A stretch of DNA of 64,000 nucleotides from Callorhinchus milii (lineage: Eukaryota). The first letter of the stretch is position 1. Each line of letters starts with the position of its first letter. Location: positions 1,364,001 to 1,428,000 of the forward strand of contig NW_024704743.1 in NCBI RefSeq assembly GCF_018977255.1. Direction: 5' to 3'. Position numbers and translations under genes: made by a program. Below, piece after piece: positions 1 to 62,980 of the stretch. The notes under the pieces were generated by a model. That model had not been told where the DNA came from. It saw only the letters and a program-made list of their open reading frames with translations, and made no database searches.

Positions 1-1123
1 ATGACTGTGCGCAAATCGGAATTCTTTTGCTTGAGTCATTAATTTAGGTCCCGTCTACCTTTTGATTCCGATGGGAGGTAAAGGCACCTTTTTATTCAGG
101 CGGGACGTGGGTCATTGCTGTGTGCAACATGCAGTCACTGCACTTTACGGTTAATACTCCTGTGAAGCTCTTTGAGACACACACACACACATGTGATAAG
201 GCGTTATTTCAAATACCAAGTCTTTTTGCAAAAACCCAATTCACTGTGGTCTTTAGGACGTTGGCGGGAGCAGTTCAGTTGACGCTTTTGCCAATAAAAC
301 AATTTTATTTCCTATTCACAATTTTTACGAAAAGTGATTTGAGAGATTTAGCTTCTCCGTTAAAAAAATAAAAGTTATTATTAACTGCAATAATCTCTTT
401 TGTATAGTTTCACAAGTTAAATGCAGGGCCTGAAGGGTTCTGACCAAATTGTGCCCCTGGTGCTCGCAAGTAATAGACAGGTCTAAGCTAACGCACCAGG
501 GGAAGGGGGAAAAAAACTGTGATACAGAATGCACTTGTCTTCATGTTGTCTGTCACTGGGTGGCAATGCAGACAGGACAGAATCCGAGCAGTTAACAGCA
601 GTTCAGACATATCCTGCATGCAAAAGGTAGCGTTATAGGCAGCCAGGCTCATTCACTCCACCGAGCCATTTCTCCTATAAAGGAACTTAAAAGTTACACA
701 GAATGCTGCGTAGCCACACAGATCCTGCGAGCCGGACTCACTGAAAAATATACCTGTCCATTGCTCCAAAAGGGTGCATGAAAATAACAAATAATTGCAC
801 ACAATTAACTAGTTAAATCCTTGCATTTAATGTATCGCGTCGTTGCGACGTCTCAAAGCGCTTCACAGAACATACTACGGAGTGAATTGACCGTATATTT
901 ATTTTGTGGTCTGTTAACACATAGGCCATTTAGAAGAATCTTTTTGTCTGGGTTTTGTATTGTAGTTCTCACATTACTGTGGAAATAAACCCCAAACTAT
1001 TTAGATGGTGATAATGTACAATTGTTAACGGCGTTTTGACAAAGTTACTTTTGATTTCTCTGCCTTTTCTGCTCCCTTCTTCAGCGCCTATTATTTTAAC
1101 TTTTACATTACGCGTTACAGAGT

Positions 1124-1480
1124 AATAATAGATAATAATAATCCTTACAATTGATACAGCACCGTGCATGTTTAGATAACACTTCAAAGCGCTTCACGGG
1201 ATTTACTGTGAAGCGTAGTGACCATATTTGTAGGCGAATGTGGCAGCGAGTCGTGGATTGAGTGACCAAATTAGTGATATATTTAAATTTTTTCAAAAAA
1301 AGGATTTTTACTCCCAGAAAGCCGTCCGCCAATCGACTAACAACCGGGTTCCTACTCACTGCTGGGTCACCAGAGACGCGTGGAGTGAGGAGACTTGCCT
1401 CACGTTTCACCCAGCCCAGGAATCAAACCCGGATCATCTCGCTTGAGGCGAGTTCTCTAACCAATACTCTACAGGACTCC
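1124..1480 (-). mobile_element. SINE, near full length
   Basis: Reverse complement of the family consensus, from ...ctacaggactcc (head) to (taa)n tail. Confidence 0.88.
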
Positions 1481-1692
1481 ACACTGAGTCAGAACAGGGC
1501 AAAGTGAAAGACCACAACTCCAATCATCTAACACCACCCCCCACCCCTGGACTGGCGCGACCATCAATTTTCAGCTGTGGCAAGTGAATTGGTGCTGGGC
1601 AAATTAAACAGGACGACTGGATTAAATGTCAGCTCACTGCTCTCCATAGGAAGGGACGTCTGCTGTTACTTACAGCTTGGGGTGACTGAGAC

Positions 1693-2010
1693 ACAACAAC
1701 AACAACAAGATTGCATTTATAGAGCGCCTTTCACGTCGGGAGGACGTCCCAAGCCGCTGGACAGTTGGGTCGGGACCCGAGCAGGAGGGGGGGAAATGGT
1801 CAGGGTGAGGGGAGGGAAGGGAGGGAGCGAGGAGGGGTTAGAGAGTCGAGAGGGGAGCTGAAGGCACGGCTGAGGAGAAAGGTCTTGAGACTGGCCTTGA
1901 AGGAGGAAAGCAAGGCGAAGGCACTGGGGGAGATTAAAGCCTGGGGGCTGAGAGGCTGAAAGCCCGGCCACCGATGGTAGGGCGGTTAGGGCGGGAGGTG
2001 AGGAGCAGAC
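1693..2010 (-). mobile_element. L2-clade LINE 3' fragment
   Basis: Translation TIGGRAFSLSAPRL (typical L2 ORF2 end), then a tail ...GGGACGTCCTCCCGACGTGAAAGGCGCTCTATAAATGCAA..(GTT)n. Confidence 0.85.
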
Positions 2011-2258
2011 CAGTGGTCCAGTGAAAACAGGATCCAGCTTTCACAGTCGACAAGACTGCCTTCGAGTCGAGTCGGCTACATTGCTTTACAGCTACGGTAA
2101 ATTCCTCACCGAGGCCGAAACAAAATGGCAGGTTCAGGCCACGTGGCAAGAGTTAGGGAGCAATGATGAGTGGCTTTATGGATGTGAGGACGAATAATGA
2201 ATTCAGACTGAGTGAGTGGTGTGGAACAATGCAATACACCAAGCAAAATGGCATCCGT

Positions 2259-2630
2259 TTAGCGCCTTTCACGTTGGGAGCGCGTCACAAGGTGCTGGAC
2301 AGTCAGTTTGTTGGATTCCTGAGGGATGGGGCCAAGGGTGGGGGACGTTGACCGAAGGCGCAGTCGAAGAGGAAGGTCTTGAGATGGACCTTGAAGGAGG
2401 CAAGGAAAGGGGTCGAAGGCAAATGGCTTCTGGGATGGGGTTCCAGAGCGTGGTGGCAGACAGGTAGCTTGAAGGCCCGATGGTCGGGAGTGGACAGGGC
2501 CGGGGACGTGAAGCAGGCCATAGCCTGCCGACAGGAGGGAGCAGAGGCCGGCGGGTTGGTAGAGTTTAAGAAGGTGTCAGAGGTCGGGTGAGGCAAGAGC
2601 CTGGAGGGGTTTGAAAGGAGGGGAGAAACA
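2259..2630 (-). mobile_element. L2-clade LINE 3' fragment
   Basis: ORF track shows DHRAF...FKVHLKTFLFD, the L2 ORF2 C-terminal motif; L2 tail present. Confidence 0.8.
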
Positions 2631-4945
2631 CGGCAAGAGCATCGGACATACAGCTGCCATGAACCGTACCGAGATGGAATCCGCTGGTGACCATGTCAAC
2701 GGGTCCACAGACATGTTTGGCAACACTATACGGTCCAACAAGTTTGTTTTTTTGTCTGATACGTGCAGAAACCCACCGCCATGTTTAAGAGGTTTGAACA
2801 CTCTTAAACTCGGCGCTGGGTTTCCGTGTGTGTCAAGACACCCGGCTGACTAACAACAACAACAACAACAACAACAAATAGCTGAATCGAATAAAGCAAA
2901 GTTTGTTAAGTTTGCCCTCACTATTCTCTGCATTGGTGTCATCGCTCACTCAAAACTCTCTCCCCATCACTCACAGGCAAAAGGAACGGAAATTTTAGAG
3001 CCCTTTCAGAGATCAGCTTCTGTTTTAACATCCAAAATGTCTTCTTTCCTCCCCGTTAGTTAATTAATGGATTAAAATAAAGTCTCTTTTTCGGTAAGTA
3101 AACACATCTACATGATCACGAAACACAAGAGGAAGTAAAGAACAGAAAAGGATTTGCAATAACAACAACAACAACAAGTGTACATGGGACTGACGTGAGA
3201 CTTGCCGTAATATGACAGATGCAAAAATAAAAATACAGAGAGGTGCCGTTCATCCCAGCTCATTGAGAAAGATGGTGATTAAAGCCCCAAAAATATCATC
3301 AATGCTTCATCCCAACCCGAGACAGAATGAATACACACATGCGCTGGGATATGGAGATGCCCAAGGATGCACTTTATTCTCTCCCCCCCACCCCCCGTGC
3401 CCCCGCACCCCCACCCAAACCCCTCACCCCCATTTTTCTTGGCTTCTTCCCAAGCTCAGGGCATTTCAATAGCAGCGGTTCAACAGTCCAGGGGCTCAAT
3501 TAAAAGTGTGGGTTAAGAAGGCCTCAGTCGATTTGATCTCACCCTTCCAGAATAATAATTATATGATAATCGCTGCATTTGATATAGCGCCTTATCACGT
3601 CTTCAAGACGCCTCAGAGCGCTTCACAGCGGCAAACCTGTGAAATGGACGAACCAGGGAGGAAACGGTGGCGGCGGATTTTACTAGTAGGAGCAGACTGA
3701 CAAGGGAATCAGATCGATTAGGGGGTATGAGAGAGTCGCAAAGGCTTTGATTTGGATGAACTTCAGTGGACTCCGAACATTCCTCTGCAGCGGATAACTT
3801 CCGACACCCCTCCCCGCCGAGTGGAAAGCCACACTATCAATCCTCGTGAGCAGCTGTACGTTAAAAGCAATAAAATCCCGGATCAATAACATGGCTGTTT
3901 CAACAGGAGTGTCCGAGGTTCAGTTCAGTCAGAACTGGGGGCCCAAACGTCAAATATTTACTGCAGGAATTACACCACTACCCCACAAGGCTACCCAGGA
4001 ATGATCCCACTAAATTACACTGTGTGTTTGAGAGAGAGTGGGGGGGGTAAAGGCAACACAATTAATAGGCAGCACTCTCCATCTCGCAGATGTTTAATAA
4101 TAATAATAATCCTTGCATTTGATATCGTGCCTTATCACGTCGTTAAGACGTCTCATTTTGCAAGTATTTGCAATCCCCCCCCCCACACCCACTCTGCTAT
4201 TATTCTCTGGATTAAGGCTGGCATTGGACTTTGGGTGTTCACAGGAACGCACACAAAAAAATTGGGCAAATAGAATTGGGCGATTAGGACAGAAAAGCGA
4301 GAGGATTTGATGAGGAATCTAAAGGGTGCGAGTCAAACCTTATCATCTTAACGGGTGTACATTTTACGGTGTTGTTACTGTATTACTCCCGAAGACTCTG
4401 GAACGCTCTCCCTCAAAGCCCCCGCCTCGTCCCCTTCCACCCCCATCTTCAGGTGCTTGTTACGGGGGTATTTGCTGCTCCTGACATAGCACGTCCTCGT
4501 TACTTTAGTGTTTAGACCGTTTCCAGTGCCTCGATGCTGGAGCTGACACTGTTAAGCCGGAGGGTCAGTGGTGTGACCCGAAGGGATCGGAAGGTGACAG
4601 CTAATGGGGCAGCGACTGAAGCCGATGTGGGTTGGGATCTGACCTTTTCCTTTTTTGGAGTTTTTAAAAGGGCGGCAAGATCAAAAAGCTCGGCCAAGCA
4701 AAACAAAAACACCACACACGCACACACAAGCCCATGCAGCTATCGATGCGAATGAATGGGGGGGGGGGGTTGCAAAAATGCAAGGCTATTTTCCCCCCCG
4801 CCCCCACCCCCAACCCGGGAATGTGTCTGGACGCATTCAAGATGGACGCTGCTTGATGACTGACGTGCGTGGACAACCATCTTTCTGATGAATGGCACCT
4901 CCCTACACGGCGCTGAGAAAACATGAAAGCAAGAGCTGTACTCAC

Positions 4946-5033
4946 ATGAAAAACTGGGAGCCGTTAGTATCTTTTCCTCTGTTTGCCATTGACAACAGGA
5001 ACTCCCTGTCGTGTTTGAGCACAAAGTTCTCAT
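4946..5033 (-). CDS. NKTR: NKTR coding exon ([30 protein letters not shown]); later exons were not found and presumably lie left of the window
   Basis: 88 nt, gacag|ATGAGAAC...TTCAT|gtgag; LSMANRG.TNGSQFF cyclophilin motif. Confidence 0.97.
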
Positions 5034-5267
5034 CTGTCCAAGAAAGGAGTAGTTGGGTCAGTCGAGAAAGGCGCTACCAGGGAGCACTTTATCTTGAACA
5101 CTTGGCAATTGCACCAACAACAGAGTAACAGCCTTGCTCTAGGCCTCACCGCAGCTTAAACACGACAATAACGTGTCTAGAAAGGGACACAGGCTTCAAA
5201 TTCCTTTACATTATCATTACCGATAATAATGCACTAATGCTCCTAGATGAGCAATTTAATTTTCGGC

Positions 5268-5655
5268 TGCGTGTCTGTGTGTGTCTGTGTGTGTGCGTTT
5301 GGGGGGGATGTGGGGGGGGGGGGGGTCGGGGGGGGGGGAAATGTGTACGCCTGTGTGCGTGTGTGGTGGTGTGTACGTGCGTGTTTTTGCGTGTGGAAGG
5401 GTGGTGGGCGTTCATGTCTGTTTGTGTATGTGCACGTCTGTGTGTGCCTGTATGTCCGTGTGGGGGGGGGGGGGGCGAAGGCGTATGCGTTTTTGAACGT
5501 CTGCGTGTGCGCATATCCGCGTATGTGCGTAACTGTGCACGTGTGCACAGCTGACGCGTGCGCAAATCCGTGCGTGTGCACATCTGCGTGTGCGCGCGCG
5601 CGCCTGTGAGCGCGTGTAAGTGTGCGTGTGTGTGTGTGTCTCTCTGGGTGTGCGT
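5268..5655. repeat. Degenerate (GT)n microsatellite with poly-G runs; similar tracts at about 16220-16350 and 19540-19730
   Basis: Visible simple-sequence repeats. Confidence 0.9.
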
Positions 5656-5764
5656 ATGCTTCGTTTTGAAGTCTGGCAAGCAATAAAAGAAAAAAAAATC
5701 AGACCATATAACTCCATCAACTCTGCCGATAAAGGTACTTGCTTGGGAGGGTGCAAGGAGAGGG

Positions 5765-5795
<31 letters not shown>

Positions 5796-5858
5796 GGGGG
5801 GGGGGTGGGGGGGGGGTGTTTTTTTTTAATTGTGTTACTTAGCTTTTTTTTCTCTTAC

Positions 5859-5886
5859 CTTTTCATTTTGCAAAAGATCACATTCT
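5859..5886 (-). other. NKTR: 28-nt alternative (poison) cassette exon of NKTR
   Basis: catattcttttatttatag|AGAATGTGATCTTTTGCAAAATGAAAAG|gtaagag: good acceptor and donor. Inclusion gives ...YFE-ENVIFCKMKR-stop, with the TGA at the start of the next exon. Confidence 0.85.
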
Positions 5887-6148
5887 CTATAAATAAAAGA
5901 ATATGTTGAAAGTTTTAGGCAGGACGATAGGTTTTCTCATGAATAAATTGCCTAGCCTCCATGCTGCAAGTTGCAAGTTTTTTAACTGCATAATAATTTA
6001 CCTCTTTTTTTTTTCTTTTATAAATTTTTTTTCTCATAAATCCACAACTTTTTTTTTTTCTCTTTCTCCCTCTCTCTCTCTCTCTCGCTCTCTCTCTCGC
6101 TCTCTCGTAGTTACCAGTGAACAAGCTAAGAAATGATTAGCCCAAATT

Positions 6149-6196
6149 CATGCATCTACTTTGTGCATGCAACAATCCAAGCACTAGCTACATGCA
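6149..6196 (-). promoter_or_regulatory. Cluster of three UGCAUG (Rbfox-type) motifs upstream of the poison exon
   Basis: catgca on + at 6149-6154, 6166-6171 and 6191-6196, i.e. TGCATG in NKTR sense; about 260-310 nt upstream of the 28-nt exon. Confidence 0.55.
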
Positions 6197-6347
6197 ACAG
6201 GTGAGGGAATTAAAAGCAATACTATTCACGTATTGTTAGATGGGGTGGGGGGGGGGGGTGGGGTGGGGTGGGGGGTAAGATTTCTATTCAACAAGTAAAA
6301 CAGAACGAGATCAAGGTTGGGCCTTTAGATTTCGACAGAAGTCCTAC

Positions 6348-6392
6348 CTTCAAAGTATCCGCCGTAAATAGATTCTCCTCCTCGTCCATTAC
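6348..6392 (-). CDS. NKTR: NKTR coding exon (GNGRGGESIYGGYFE/D)
   Basis: 45 nt, cttag|GTAATGGA...TTTGAAG|gtagg; in frame. Confidence 0.96.
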
Positions 6393-7396: not shown

Positions 7397-7504
7397 CTTC
7401 GCTGAAGTCACCACCTTGGATCATGAATTCTTTTACAATGCGATGGAAAGTGGAGCCCTTATAACAAAGCTGCTTTCGAGTTCTTTTTCCCAATCCTTTT
7501 TCAC
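7397..7504 (-). CDS. NKTR: NKTR coding exon ([37 protein letters not shown])
   Basis: 108 nt, tgcag|GTGAA...GAAG|gtggg. Contains the catalytic [11 protein letters not shown] cyclophilin motif. GLGK..LCYKGST fits NKTR better than its paralogue PPIG, and SEC22C is adjacent. Confidence 0.97.
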
Positions 7505-8179: not shown

Positions 8180-8546
8180 TAAAATAATAATAATCCTTAC
8201 ATTTGACACAGCGCCCGATCACGTCTTCGAGACGTCTCAAAGCGCTTCACGGGATAACACTGCAAAGTGAATCGACTGTGTTTTGTGGGCGAAACGCGGC
8301 AGCCGATGGCACACAGCGGCGTTCCCCCACAAACAGCCGCGGGTTGAGTGACCAATTTTTAAAAAAAATTAGGTGGGGGAAGATTTTTACCCACGAAAAG
8401 CCATTGCCAATCAACTGACAACCGGGTTCCTACTGCGTGTGTGTGTGTGTGTGGAGTAATTAAACTTGCCCAACTTTTCGCCCGGGAATCGGACCCAGGT
8501 CCTCTCGCTTGCGAGGCGAGTGCTCTAACCCACTGAGCTACAGGAC
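8180..8546 (-). mobile_element. SINE, full length
   Basis: Complete head-body-tail match. Confidence 0.9.
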
Positions 8547-8824: not shown

Positions 8825-9226
8825 GGAGCTCAGTGGTTGGAGCGTTCGCCTCGCGAGCGAGAGGACCGGGTTCGGTTCCCGGTCAGGTCGGGGCGAAACG
8901 TTGGGCAAGTTTCCTCACTCCACACTCACACACACACACACACACATGCGCCTCTGTTTACCGGCAGTCAGTAGGAACCCGGTTGTTAGTCGATTGGCGG
9001 ATCGCTTTTCCGGGGGTAATAATCTCTTCAAAAAAAAATATAATCATAATTTGGTCACTTCAATCCACGGCTGTTTGCGGGGACGCTGCCGTGCGCAATT
9101 GGCCGCCGCGTTTCGCCCAAAGTCAGCTCAGTATATTGAACAGCAATGTATCCGGTGAAGCGCTTTGAGAGGTCTCGAAGACGCGATAAGGCGCTGTATC
9201 AAACGCCAGGATTATTATTATTATTA
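8825..9226 (+). mobile_element. SINE, full length, inverted relative to 8180-8546
   Basis: gctcagtggttggagcgttcgcctcgcgagcgagaggaccgggttcggttccc ... ggattattattattatta. Confidence 0.9.
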
Positions 9227-9367: not shown

Positions 9368-9442
9368 CTGTGCAAAGAAAGAGGAAGTTTTTACAGGTCT
9401 TGGGGCAGACATCTGAGAACAATTCAAAAACAATGCGGCCCA
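9368..9442 (-). CDS. NKTR: NKTR coding exon ([26 protein letters not shown])
   Basis: 75 nt, cttacag|TGGGC...GCACAG|gtagg. Continues the frame of the previous exon; cyclophilin [13 protein letters not shown] motif. Confidence 0.96.
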
Positions 9443-12528: not shown

Positions 12529-12806
12529 GGAGTCGTGCTGTAGCTCAGGGGTCAGAGCACTCGCCTCGCAAGCCAGAGGAACTGGGTTTGATTCCCGGCT
12601 AACGAGAAACCTCAGGTAATAATCCCTCCCCCCCAAAAAAAAATCAAAATAATAATTTGGTCGCTCAACCCACGGCTGTTTGTGGGGACGCTGCTGTGCG
12701 CGATCGGCTGCCGCGTTTCGCCCACAAACACAGTGTATCCCGTGAAGCGCTTTGAGACTGTCTCGAAGACGTGATAAGGCGCTGTATCAAATGCCAGGAT
12801 TGTTAT
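12529..12806 (+). mobile_element. SINE with an internal deletion of the central body
   Basis: The tRNA head joins almost directly to the ggtaataatccc/Deu-like block. Confidence 0.85.
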
Positions 12807-19821: not shown

Positions 19822-19879
19822 CTGGAACCCTGTTTATCTCCACGTCAAAGTAGCATTGAGGACGGTTCTTCACCCCCAT
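19822..19879 (-). CDS. NKTR: NKTR first coding exon (MGVKNRPQCYFDVEINRVP/V); the exon probably begins at 19904 with 5'UTR
   Basis: Reverse complement ATG GGG GTG AAG AAC CGT CCT CAA TGC TAC TTT GAC GTG GAG ATA AAC AGG GTT CCA G|gtaag. 58 coding nt, cyclophilin N-terminus. Upstream acceptor cctcctcctctttgttctgaatcag at 19905-19906. Confidence 0.93.
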
Positions 19880-22874: not shown

Positions 22875-23198
22875 GACAAAGTGAATTGACTGTATGTCTT
22901 GTGGGCGAAACGCAGCAGCCGATTGAGCACGACGGTGTCTCACAAACTTGCCGTTGGTTGAGTGACCAAATTATTATTATTATTTTATTTTTTCGGAGGG
23001 ATTATTACCTCCAGAAAGGTGATTCGCCAATCAAGTAACAACCGGGTTCCTACTGACTGCCGGTAAACAGGAGGCGCGTGTGTGTGTGTGTGTGGAGTGA
23101 GGAAACTTGCCCAACGTCTCGCCCTGACCTGCCCGGGAATCGAACCCGGGTCCTCTCGCTCACGAGGCGAGGGCTCTGACCCCTGAGCTCCAGGACTC
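22875..23198 (-). mobile_element. SINE, 3' tail truncated
   Basis: Head, body and Deu-like block match. Confidence 0.87.
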
Positions 23199-24439: not shown

Positions 24440-24652
24440 TGGGGTGGGGATTATTATCCCCGGGACAAGCGATCCGCCAATCGACTAACAACCGGGTTCC
24501 TACTGACCGCCGGTAAACAGAGTCGTGTGTGGAGTGTGTGTGTGTGGAGTGAGGAGCCTTACCCAACGTCTCGCCCTGACCTGCCCGGGAATCGAACCCG
24601 GGTCCCCTCGCTTGCGAGGCGAGGGCTCTAACCCCCGAGCTCCAGGGACTCC
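24440..24652 (-). mobile_element. SINE, 5' half
   Basis: Well-preserved head ...gggaatcgaacccgggtcccctcgcttgcgaggcgagggctctaaccccc. Confidence 0.87.
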
Positions 24653-26857: not shown

Positions 26858-27242
26858 GGAGTCCTGTAGCTCAGTGGTTAGAGCCCTCGCCTCGCAGTCA
26901 AGAGACCCGGGTTTGACTCCCGGGCAGGGGGGCGAAATGTTGGGCAAGTTTCTTTACTCCACACACGCGCCTCTGTTTACCGGCAGTCAGTAGGAACCCG
27001 GTTGTTAGTCGATTGGAGGATCGCTTTTCCGGGAGTAATAATCCCTTCCAAAAATAAAAATTATTTGGTCACTCAATCCACGGCTGTTTGTGGGGGACGC
27101 TGCTGTGCGCAATTGGCTGCCGCGTTTCGCCCCCAAAATATACAGTCAATTCAGTTTATACAGTATATGCTGTGAAGCCCTTTGAGACGTCTCGAAGATG
27201 TGATAAGGCGCTGTATCAAATGCAAGGACTATTTTTATTATT
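26858..27242 (+). mobile_element. Full-length tRNA-derived SINE (reference copy of the dominant family)
   Basis: GGAGTCCTGTAGCTCAGTGGTTAGAG (A box) ... GGGTTTGACTCCC (B box); body GGGCAAGTTTC..GCCTCTGTTTACCGGCAGTCAGTAGGAACCCGG; Deu-like GCTGTTTGTGGGGGACGCTGCTGTGCGCAATTGGCTGCCGCGTTTC; L2-like tail ending in ATT repeats. Confidence 0.92.
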
Positions 27243-33161: not shown

Positions 33162-33491
33162 ATAATAATAATAATAATAATAATCCTTGCAATTCATATA
33201 GCGCTTTTCACGTCTTCTAGACGTCTTAAAGCTCTTCACAGAATAGACTGTAAAGTGAATTGACTGTATAATATGTGGGCGAAACGCGGCAGCCAATCGC
33301 GCACAGCAACGTCCCCACAAACAGCCGTGGACTGAGTGACCAAATTGTTATTGCTTTTTTTTTCTTGAGGGATTATTATTAGGCTCTGTGTGGAGTAAGG
33401 AAACTTGCCCACGGTTTCGCCCTCTGCCTGGAATTGAACTCAGGTCTCTCGCTTGCAAAGCGAGTGCTCTAACCACTGAGCTACAGGACTC
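33162..33491 (-). mobile_element. SINE, near full length
   Basis: Family match with a long (taa)n tail. Confidence 0.88.
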
Positions 33492-39062: not shown

Positions 39063-40834
39063 CGTTGAAGTGAACGGCTACCTTAAGGCATTCTAGCCAG
39101 TAGTGACCTGGTGACTTGGGAGCACACTGAGTGGCATTCTTGCCTGCGGGTGAAAAGGTTGTTGGTTCAAGCTCCGGGTCAGGGTTTGGAACTGAGACTC
39201 GGCTAAAACTCAAAGCACTGCCGAAGAGGCGCTGCGCTGTGAGAGCTGCTGTTTCTCCAGATCTGGTTCATAAATTGAGATCCCATCCGTTGAACATTAA
39301 TGATCCCATATTTCTGTGGGAAATGAGGGAAGAATAAGCAGAACATCTCTGAAATTGGCCATTCAATTTATGGCTGTTTGTGGGGCACTGCACTTTACGG
39401 AAAAAATAGTCTCAAGTGCTTATGTAATAAGGCACCACGTCAAATGCAAGATTATTAAAAAGAACGTCCACCTCATTGAATGGTTATGGGACCTTGCTGT
39501 ACCACTGGCTTTTCCATGTGTAGGTGGGACGCATGGAATTGTCAGTTTGGTTTGGAGACTACCCTCGACACAAGATGCTTTGATGTTACAAGACACCATA
39601 AAAATTCCTCGCATGGCGAGAAGTGGAGATCATCAGGATGAACACGAGTATTAAATACCTCCTCCGAGGATCGGCGCGTGGCTCAAGAGAAGGCGAAATC
39701 CACACAGCTTTACTTCACGTCAGCAAAACGCCACTGCTTATCAAAGCCAGCCGCACTCTCAAACACAACCCAGATTATTTTTTCTTGCAAAAAAAACCGT
39801 GATAGCCACAGAATCATTGAATTATATACACAGCACGGAAGGAGGCCATTCGTCCCATCGGGTCTGTGCCGGCTATTTTAAAAGAGCCATCCAAATCAAT
39901 CCCACTCCCCTGCTCTCTCTCCCCATAGCCCTATAAATTGGTCCACCCCCAAATACCAGCAGCTTGCATTTGATACAGCGCCCTTATCATATCGTCGAGA
40001 CGTCTCAAAGCGCTTCACAGGATATACTGTAAAGTTAATTGACTGTGTGGTTCGTGGACGAAACGTGCCAATTGCGCACAGCAGCGTCCCCACAAACAGA
40101 TTATTAGCCCCGGAAAGCGATCGCTTTCTGTGTCATCATATCTCAATTTTTAATTGAGAGATTTTTTGTCTTCTGTGTGCGCTTCTACGGGTTAAGCACC
40201 ACCTCAAGCAGCAAAATAGCTATGATAAAACGGCTGGCCCACTGTTGTCAGCTTGGCAGTCGCTGTAGCATATAGAGAGAGAACATTGCTGCCAGCTGAG
40301 AACTTTAATTGAGCTCTTCGCTTTCACAGTCCAATGTAACAGAAACCATTTGCAATACACACAGGATAGGAAAGTGAAGCAGTAATTACACGTCCAAAAC
40401 TGCCAGGAGATTAATATTCAACCCCCCGGTGAGTACAACAGAGCAAAACAAAATTCGCAATTAATGAACTTGGAAGTTAAGAATCAGACAGCGCTTATTG
40501 GTTTGCTGAGTCGATGAAGAGGTTTGGGATAACAGTGATTACATTCATCCATACATGGGAGTCCTGTAGCTGAGGGGTTAGAGCACTCGCCTCACAAGCG
40601 AGAGGACCCGGGTTCGATTCCAGGCAGGTCAGGGCGAAATGTTGGGCAAGTTTCCTTACTCCACTGACCTCTCTTGCTGTCTGCTGTACCAGAACAACAG
40701 AACAGCATGACTAACGGAGGGTAACTCTTACCACAACGCGACCAGATACTTGAGCGCTAGTGAGCTAGAGTTGTAAACTGCAATCCATGGCTTCCTGAGA
40801 CCGTTTAGATTTCCTCCTCATTTAAAAACAACGC

Positions 40835-53989: not shown

Positions 53990-54045
53990 CAAGTCCGTCG
54001 GGTTGGACCTGACCTGCGAGCCCGGCGCATGCGCCGACAGCCCCT
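53990..54045. promoter_or_regulatory. Candidate promoter element: NRF1-type palindrome in a CpG-rich segment between the divergent genes
   Basis: CGGCGCATGCGCCG at 54023-54036 (core GCGCATGCGC). A possible minus-strand donor CAG|gtcagg lies at 54014/54013. Confidence 0.45.
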
Positions 54046-54146
54046 CCCCCCCCCTCCCACACCCACACCCACCCACAATGCCTCAGGGGCAACGGTGACA
54101 ACAGCTGAGAAACAGCAGCTCAGACTGTGAGGATCATGGGCTGAAC

Positions 54147-55071
54147 TTAGCCCCTCCCCCTCTCCCCCCCCCACCCCCTGCACTGTCTCCCCCTCCCCCA
54201 CACCGTCTCCCTCACCCCCATACCCTCTCTCTCCCCCCCACCCCCTACACCGTCTCCCCTCCCCCCCCCCCACCCCCACACCGTCTCCCTCACCCCCACC
54301 CCCCATACCCTCTCTCTCTCCCCCCCCCACCCCCTACACCGTCTCCCTCTCCCCCCCCACCCCACACCTCTCTCTCTCTCCCCCCCCACCCCCTACACCG
54401 TCTCCCTCTCCCCCCACCCCCCGCACCGTCTCTCTCTCCCCCCCACCCCCCATACCCTCTCTCTCCCCCCCCACCCCTACACCGTCTCCCTCTCCCCCCC
54501 ACCCCCCACGTCTCTCCCCCCCACCCCCATACCCTCTCCCTCTCCCCCCCCCCCACGTCTCTCTCTCCCCCCACCCCCATACCCTCTCTCTCCCCCCCCC
54601 ACCCCCTACACCGTCTCCCTCTCCCCCCCCCACCCCCCACACCGTCTCCCTCTCCCACCCATACCTCTCGCTCTCCCCCCCACCCCTGCACCGTCTCCCT
54701 CTCCCCCCCCACCCCCCACCGTCTCCTCTCCCCCCCACCCCCCGCACCGTCTCCCTCTCCCCCCCCACCGTCTCCCTCTCCCACCCCCATACCCTCTCGC
54801 TCTCCCCCCACCCCTACACCGTCTCCCTCTCCCCCCCCACCCCCCACACCGTCTCCCTCTCCCACCCCATACCCTCTCGCTCTCCCCCCCACCCCCTACA
54901 CCGTCTCCCTCTCCCCCCCCCACCCCCCACACCGTCTCCCTCTCCCCCCCCATACCCTCTCGCTCTCCCCCACCCACCCCCCACACCGTCTCCCTCTCCC
55001 CCCCATACCCTCTCGCTCTCCCCCCCCCACCCACCCCCTACACCGTCTCGCTCTCCCCCCCCCCATACTTT
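54147..55071. repeat. C-rich minisatellite
   Basis: Alternating units cccc(t)acaccgtctccctctcccccccc and cccccataccctctc(g/t)ctctccccc. Confidence 0.93.
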
Positions 55072-55096
55072 NNNNNNNNNNNNNNNNNNNNNNNNN
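55072..55096. other. Assembly gap (25 N)
   Basis: Run of n in the sequence. Confidence 0.99.
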
Positions 55097-55795
55097 GGGG
55101 GGGAGACAGAGGTCGTGGGGAGGGGGTGATGGAGGGGGAAAGGGGGACTGGGGGTGAGGGGGTACAGTGTGGGGGTGTAAGGGGGGTGGGTGTGAGGAGA
55201 TCTCGGGGGGTGAGGGGGTGGGGTCTCGGGGGGGGTCTCGGGTGGGGGGGTGTGGGGTGAGGGCTGTGATGGGGGTCTCGGGGGGGTGTGGGGGGGTGTG
55301 GGGTGAGGGCTGTGATGGGGTCTCGGGGTGTGGGGGATGTGGGGGTCTGGGGTGAGAGCTGTGATGGGGGTCTCGGGGTGTGGGGCTGTGATGGGGGTCT
55401 CGGGGTGTGGGGGTGTGGGCTGTGATGGGGGTCTCGGGTGTGGGGCTGTGATGGGGGTGTGGGGTGTGGGGCTGTGATGGGGGTCTCGGGGTGTGGGGCT
55501 GTGATGGGGGTCTCGGGGTGAGGGCTGTGATGGGGGTCTCGGGGTGAGGGCTGTGATGGGGGTCTCGGGTGTGGGGGTGAGGGCTGTGATGGGGGTCTCG
55601 GGGTGTGGGGGGGTCTCGGGGTGTGGGGGTGGGGCTGTGATGGGGGTCTCGGGGTGTGGGGTGTGAGGGGGTCTCGGGTGTGGGGGTGAGGGCTGTGATG
55701 GGGGTCTCGGGGTGTGGGGGTGAGGGCTGTGATGGGGGTCTCGGGGTGTGGGGGTGAGGGCTGTGATGGGGGTCTCGGGGTGTGGGGGTGAGGGC
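55097..55795. repeat. G-rich minisatellite
   Basis: Repeated gggctgtgatgggggtctcggggtg(tggg)(ggtga). Confidence 0.93.
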
Positions 55796-55796
55796 C

Positions 55797-56098
55797 TCGC
55801 TCTCCCCCCCCCTCCATACCCTCTCGCTCTCCCCCCCCACCCACCCCCTACACCGTCTCGCTCTTCCCCCCCCAATACTTTCTCGCTCTCCCCCCCCTCC
55901 ATACCTCTCGCTCCTCCCACCCTCTCGCTCCTCCCACCCTCTCGCTCCTCCCACCCTCTCGCTCCTCCCGCCTTCTCGCTCCTCCCGCCTCTCGCTCTTC
56001 CCACCCCCACCCCCTCACTCTTCCCACCCCACACCCCCCCCCCCCCACCCTCTCGCTCGCGAGGTGAACGCTCTTAACCACTGAGCTACAGGGCTCCA
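55797..56098. repeat. C-rich repeat (ctctcgctcctcccac)n running into a minus-strand SINE head
   Basis: Short units at about 55905-56000; ctctcgctcgcgaggtgaacgctcttaaccactgagctacagggctcc at about 56050-56098. Confidence 0.8.
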
Positions 56099-56499
56099 CG
56101 TCCACTTTTAATGTCCACTCATTCCCCAGTTCCAGCACACTGGGGTATTCCCTCCGCGAGAGAAGAGAGAATGGATTCCCTGCTTTGCGGAGGAAATAAT
56201 TCTAATGCACTTGTGCGTGACATTTCGTGTCACGAGGAAAGCTATTCGTTCGCCTCTCCGGGGTGTGAATGGTCCCATTGTGGTCGTTGGATGTTTATGC
56301 TTTTTTTGGTATTGTCCTCCATGGAGTGGGTGGGTGGGGGTGGGGGGGGGGGGGAGAAATAAGCGGGCTTTTTTGTGGGGGAGCTGAGCTGGCTGCAAGG
56401 TGACGTGCGTGGCAGAGGAACGTCGGAATCGAGTCGCTGCTCTGTGGCGGCCGCTCTCAGGGGTCTTGATTCTTGAGCCACACGGATCCACAGTACTCC

Positions 56500-62654: not shown

Positions 62655-62980
62655 ACCTGTAGCGTAGTGGTTAGCGTGCGTGCCTCGCAAGCAAGAGGTC
62701 CCAGGTTCGATTCCTGGGCCGGATGAAACTCCATCCCGGTCAAACCCGGTTGTTAGTCGATTGCCGGGACGCTTAACACAGAGTAGTAATCCCTCCCAAA
62801 CAATATAATAATAATTTTGTCTCTCAATCCACGGGTTGGGGGCACTGCTTTGCGCAATTTGACAGGTGCGCTTGCCTACAAAAATACAGTCACTCCGCTT
62901 TACAGTCTCCCCTGAGGTGAAGCGCTTTTGAGATGTCCTCCTGAGGTGAAAAGGCGCTGCATCAGACGCAAGTTGTGTTG
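62655..62980 (+). mobile_element. SINE variant with an L2-type (GTT) tail
   Basis: tRNA head and Deu-like block, ending gatgtcctcctgaggtgaaaaggcgctgcatcagacgcaagttgtgttgt. Confidence 0.8.

Follow-up and report, generated by a model that had tools for sequence, protein, structure and literature searches.

A putative 28-nt frameshifting cassette exon in the NKTR gene of a chimaera matches the mammalian NKTR poison exon

The window, i.e., the whole stretch of 64,000 nucleotides of Callorhinchus milii DNA analysed here, contains on its minus strand a 28-nt block that matches the poison exon of mammalian NKTR in place, length, and sequence. The block is flanked by splice sites, lies between two NKTR coding exons, and shifts the frame into an early stop. 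It probably works as the mammalian exon does, and we infer its inclusion and decay in the chimaera from this likeness.

The host gene and its exons

A cyclophilin gene contributes five coding exons to the window, all on the minus strand. They are listed here together with the elements of the block, in the order of transcription.

19822..19879, minus strand: first coding segment of NKTR, 58 nt from the ATG
9368..9442, minus strand: NKTR coding exon, 75 nt
7397..7504, minus strand: NKTR coding exon, 108 nt
6348..6392, minus strand: NKTR coding exon, 45 nt, counterpart of human exon 5
5887..6347, minus strand: upstream intron, 461 nt; reading through its donor yields a product of 102 aa
5887..5905, minus strand: T-rich tract and AG acceptor, from the sequence (AG at 5888-5887)
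5859..5886, minus strand: 28-nt frameshifting cassette exon, counterpart of human NKTR exon 6 and of the mouse Nktr alternative exon; assigned from splice sites, translation, 9/10 residues shared with database tails, and the length and place of the human and mouse exons
5853..5858, minus strand: 5' splice site of the cassette, GT donor at 5858, by matrix rank
5034..5858, minus strand: downstream intron, 825 nt, containing a G-run and CA-rich simple repeats
5030..5032, minus strand: premature TGA on inclusion, 84 nt upstream of the end of the 88-nt exon
4946..5033, minus strand: NKTR coding exon, 88 nt, counterpart of human exon 7

In the form that skips the cassette, 119–120 of 124 residues are identical to those of six NKTR proteins from sharks and rays, and 103–111 of 124 to those of the full-length NKTR proteins of bony vertebrates that we compared. 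Lamprey PPIG-like proteins reach 96–97 of 124, and PPIG was rejected as the host gene on this difference. Read-through of the donor at 6348 gives a protein identical over 102 aa to a UniRef record of the same species (A0A4W3IFI6, Callorhinchus milii). Protein identity and this record together identify the host as NKTR and not PPIG.

The next NKTR coding exon after the 88-nt exon was not found in positions 1–4945 of the window, so the intron that follows must exceed 4.9 kb. In a bamboo shark, the gene model is split at the same place, after the 88-nt exon (P0092, P0094). At the other end of the gene, a consensus-like donor on the minus strand at about 23463, some 3.6 kb upstream of the ATG exon, may mark the end of a non-coding first exon. 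Four mammalian records (P0150, P0279, P0283, P0284) skip the 88-nt exon, a second frameshifting event at the NKTR locus.

Rfam gave nine tRNA-like hits of modest score in the window (8482-8540, 8826-8885, 12540-12599, 23125-23196, 24585-24641, 26863-26929, 33424-33486, 40560-40632, and 62660-62717). Several are followed by a shared repeat sequence, and the nine are likely copies of a tRNA-derived SINE rather than tRNA genes. These were the only hits in 5950–64000, there were none in 1–5800, and the explanation of the locus as a snoRNA host was dropped on these grounds. A GC-rich (70%), low-complexity tandem region at 54000–56100, which includes a run of N, is likely a repeat at an assembly gap.

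Splice sites of the cassette and the predicted effect of its inclusion

Splice sites between 19821 and 4946 (14.9 kb) were scored with a rough, untrained weight matrix. By this rough measure, the cassette donor ranks first among 866 GT sites, the acceptor is good but not exceptional (rank 11 among 879 AG sites), and the pair comes second among all candidate exons of 20–200 nt, below a true coding exon. The initial annotation had called both sites strong, which holds for the donor and has to be softened for the acceptor; it was right on the coordinates, on the length of 28 nt, and on the flanking 45-nt (6392-6348) and 88-nt (5033-4946) exons, all on the minus strand. A second AG sits two bases inside the cassette and could yield a 26-nt variant, and the pig and salmonid records described below read as if they had been spliced there.

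In-silico joining of the exons with the cassette gives a protein of 105 aa that ends in ENVIFCKMKR and is followed by TGA, and joining without it keeps the frame over 124 open codons. Canonical sites surround an exon that can be skipped and the skipped form is open, two properties expected of a poison cassette. The ten-residue ending had been read correctly at the outset, and the stop, first placed three bases into the next exon, is to be moved to bases 2–4 of the 88-nt exon (5032-5030). Because the cyclophilin domain ends near residue 174, inclusion would remove about 40% of the domain and the whole RS-rich tail, and the truncation at 105 aa does fall in mid domain as proposed. The active-site residues, placed by cyclophilin A numbering, presumably lie within the lost part. 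Nonsense-mediated decay (NMD) is expected when a stop lies more than 50–55 nt before a downstream junction. The TGA is 84 nt from the end of its exon, with the junction there assumed from relatives, and the earlier prediction of NMD agrees with this distance.

The mammalian counterpart

The mammalian exon put forward in the initial annotation is real: a 28-nt exon lies between the same two flanking exons in human (PMC8501971) and mouse (PMC3446288). Human NKTR exon 6 (hg19 chr3:42661508-42661535, 28 nt) lies between exons 5 and 7 and gives RT-PCR products of 140 and 112 bp; its inclusion falls upon EBV infection of B cells, the retention of the intron that follows it also changes, and the event is labelled 'N-ter truncated protein' (PMC8501971). 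Other papers report exclusion of NKTR exon 6 with HTLV-1 HBZ (PMC9376625) and retention of human NKTR intron 6 (PMC8395096). The mouse exon follows exon 5 of Nktr, has junctions 28 apart, and belongs to the class "PTC upon inclusion" (PMC3446288). Upon Upf2 loss, its PSI changed from 0.20 to 0.58 in macrophages, with very wide intervals (0.004–0.83 versus 0.17–0.93), and from 0 to 0.625 in liver, again with a wide interval, and the Nktr gene level rose 2.5-fold and 3.83-fold, respectively; NKTR autoregulation was put forward there as a proposal (PMC3446288).

The chimaera cassette is equal to human exon 6 (protein record A8K7K2) and to the mouse Nktr exon in gene, in intron, and in its length of 28 nt. 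Inclusion gives a 105-aa product in both the mammalian and the chimaera genes, with tails equal at 9/10 residues, and the exon is in both cases closer to the upstream exon (introns of 461 and 825 nt in the chimaera, 316 and 1453 in mouse). The differences are that the chimaera is a cartilaginous fish, that its exon has one inferred base change, and that splicing and NMD have been demonstrated in mammals only. Both the NKTR exon and its link to NMD are thus already published for mammals, and what is new here is the deep-branching chimaera member. A 1993 paper reportedly dealt with NK-TR splicing. We found no report of the exon outside mammals, or of its frame changes, in open-licence papers and preprints; such a report may exist in subscription papers, in supplements to preprints, or in splicing databases.

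Conservation across vertebrates

The cassette peptide has a homologous sequence in the amniote tails, with 9/10 residues shared with the tail of P0276, the DNA identity being deduced from the peptides. Elsewhere in the six-frame translation of the window (127,586 positions), no match exceeds 6/10, so the match between cassette and tail is more than chance. To place it among vertebrates, we used a sample of 341 database proteins; short NKTR forms were obtained by querying with the 102-aa chimaera record and by looking up clusters. The motif that ends the 45-nt exon is present in 169 of the 341 proteins: 11 are PPIG-like and 158 NKTR-type, the latter assigned by motif in 148 cases and by name or cluster in the other 10. 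Among the NKTR-type proteins, 81 run on into the following exon, 21 are donor read-throughs, 5 take other forms, and 51 carry a tail made of the exon peptide, a fraction (51/158) that comes from a non-random sample, with clusters picked by their tails and many records that may be projected gene models.

The tails are found in three frames. The frame of the window is used in 39 of the 51, from mammals (human A8K7K2 included), birds, alligator, turtles, tuatara, lizards, tarpon, bonefish, carps, piranhas, and electric eel, as well as from unnamed proteins grouped in a cluster with a frog NKTR. A second frame (WSFAK or GSFAK) is used in seven, which include the percomorph fish perch, Javanese ricefish, and clingfish as well as unnamed proteins, and a third (CGLLQN) in five, from pig, three salmonids, and coelacanth. 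The second frame also occurs in a mammal, in a clouded-leopard protein outside the 51 (P0174). Whichever of the three frames is used, all short tailed forms stop early; one of the five CGLLQN proteins, the Oncorhynchus record P0311, is a long gene model. When compared by eye with the mammalian tails, the cassette differs by one residue in each frame, and all these differences come from its ninth base. This implies that about 27 of the 28 bases are identical to the mammalian exon, a figure derived from peptides of different mammals and not from a DNA alignment. Ten of the 51 tailed proteins are known only from assemblies of sequencing runs and have several exons joined in a single frame, as expected from spliced transcripts. 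The protein records of the three frames point to conservation of the RNA sequence and of the stop rather than of the peptide. Since the same bases are read in three frames and an early stop follows in every one, selection seems to act on the RNA and on termination, not on the peptide.

None of the 35 cartilaginous-fish NKTR proteins compared has the exon tail; one of these proteins is a donor read-through, and in two others the start lies at the MANRG methionine further downstream. Poison-exon transcripts are frequently annotated as non-coding. For this reason, the count of 0/35 is weak counter-evidence. The NKTR tail is also absent from the four lamprey proteins, which all run straight into the next exon and are too few to date the origin. 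A scan of metagenome contigs for the exon pattern gave no match and another with a fish-type NKTR fragment gave 10 loci, all short or weak matches; because this collection is ill-suited to vertebrate DNA, neither scan counts against conservation. With the exon peptide spread across bony vertebrates and the block present in a chimaera, the simplest reading is the one first proposed, namely that the exon has been present since the gnathostome ancestor. The putative switch itself, which may be regulated like those of SR genes, probably dates to the first jawed vertebrates.

Proposed mechanism and alternative roles of the block

In the scenario that we favour, the cassette is most likely skipped to give full-length NKTR and would be included in a share of the transcripts, where the frameshift would halt the ribosome 84 nt before the junction. 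The included message would undergo NMD, as published for mouse and as expected for the chimaera, and the output of NKTR would be lowered. If the flanking introns are retained, this may in addition hold the transcript in the nucleus. Inclusion would be controlled by splicing factors, possibly by NKTR itself through its RS-rich tail. Such feedback of NKTR on its own exon is plausible by analogy with SR genes (PMC4379411) and with the speckle-linked paralogue PPIG (PMC4496705).

The block could instead be mainly a decoy exon, whose strong sites would keep the flanking introns unspliced and the transcript nuclear, with decay being secondary. This is compatible with the poison-exon scenario, and it fits the reported retention of human intron 6 (PMC8395096; PMC8501971). 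It also fits the Callorhinchus record that reads through the donor at 6348 and the 21 of 158 NKTR-type proteins with the same form, although such records can be artefacts of gene models or pre-mRNA. Yet the increase of the included mouse form on Upf2 loss indicates that it is translated and degraded (PMC3446288), and a pure decoy would not need a stop that is kept in all three frames. We find it unlikely that acting as a decoy is its main role. With the tail in 0/35 cartilaginous-fish proteins, the block could also have fallen silent in chimaeras, as a remnant that is homologous to the mammalian exon and no longer spliced in. Neutral decay over a time span of roughly 450 million years fits badly with intact sites, a top-ranked donor, and the preservation of about 27 of 28 bases within introns full of repeats, and this makes a remnant highly improbable.

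A similarly slim chance goes to inclusion yielding a functional protein. This could be the half-cyclophilin of 105 aa, or a product restarted at the MANRG methionine and devoid of the first half of the domain. The ten-residue tail indeed hardly varies between amniotes, some teleosts, and the window. Annotations for Mobula, Narcine, Alosa, Rana, and Peromyscus include isoforms that begin at MANRG, and the human event carries the label of an N-terminally truncated protein (PMC8501971). The frame differs, however, in percomorphs, salmonids, and coelacanth. The loss of some 40% of the domain, presumably with active-site residues (cyclophilin A numbering), also speaks against a functional product. 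Moreover, the mouse form is an NMD target (PMC3446288).

If the block is the poison exon that we propose, a splicing-decay switch of NKTR would be placed before the split of sharks and bony vertebrates, and a general role of NKTR in dosage control would gain support over a role confined to NK cells. Changes of frame from lineage to lineage would then be a natural test of what selection targets in a poison exon, namely the bases and the stop as opposed to the peptide, and the 28-nt target would make autoregulation easy to test. The surprise is modest, with the mammalian exon published and vertebrate-wide poison exons known from SR genes.

Comparison with related poison-exon systems

A broader proposal, which we hold tentatively and consider rather doubtful, is that NKTR, long classed as an NK-cell receptor, would regulate splicing in the manner of an SR protein, and that its feedback switch would be as ancient as the jawed vertebrates. 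The core bases of the exon would be a binding site and would have been kept, its length and reading frame would have changed at least twice in fish lineages with a stop always left in place, and the same intron of the paralogue PPIG may harbour a poison event unrelated to this one.

PPIG, an SR-cyclophilin (PMC4496705), shares with NKTR the exon boundary after the GGESIYGG motif. None of the 11 PPIG-like proteins compared has the NKTR tail. Two PPIG-type proteins (P0163, P0165) have an extra short tail at the matching boundary. It does not resemble the NKTR tail and may reflect an independent poison event in the matching intron of PPIG, one that looks unrelated in sequence.

A published parallel is given by SR-protein genes such as SRSF5 and SRSF6, which have poison cassette exons (PMC4379411). 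The likeness comprises a stop-creating cassette in a gene for an RS-domain protein, its conservation across vertebrates, and reported retention of neighbouring introns (PMC4379411). The NKTR exon differs from these in being very short and in poisoning by frameshift, and its host is an RS cyclophilin in which Pfam found no RNA-recognition domain.
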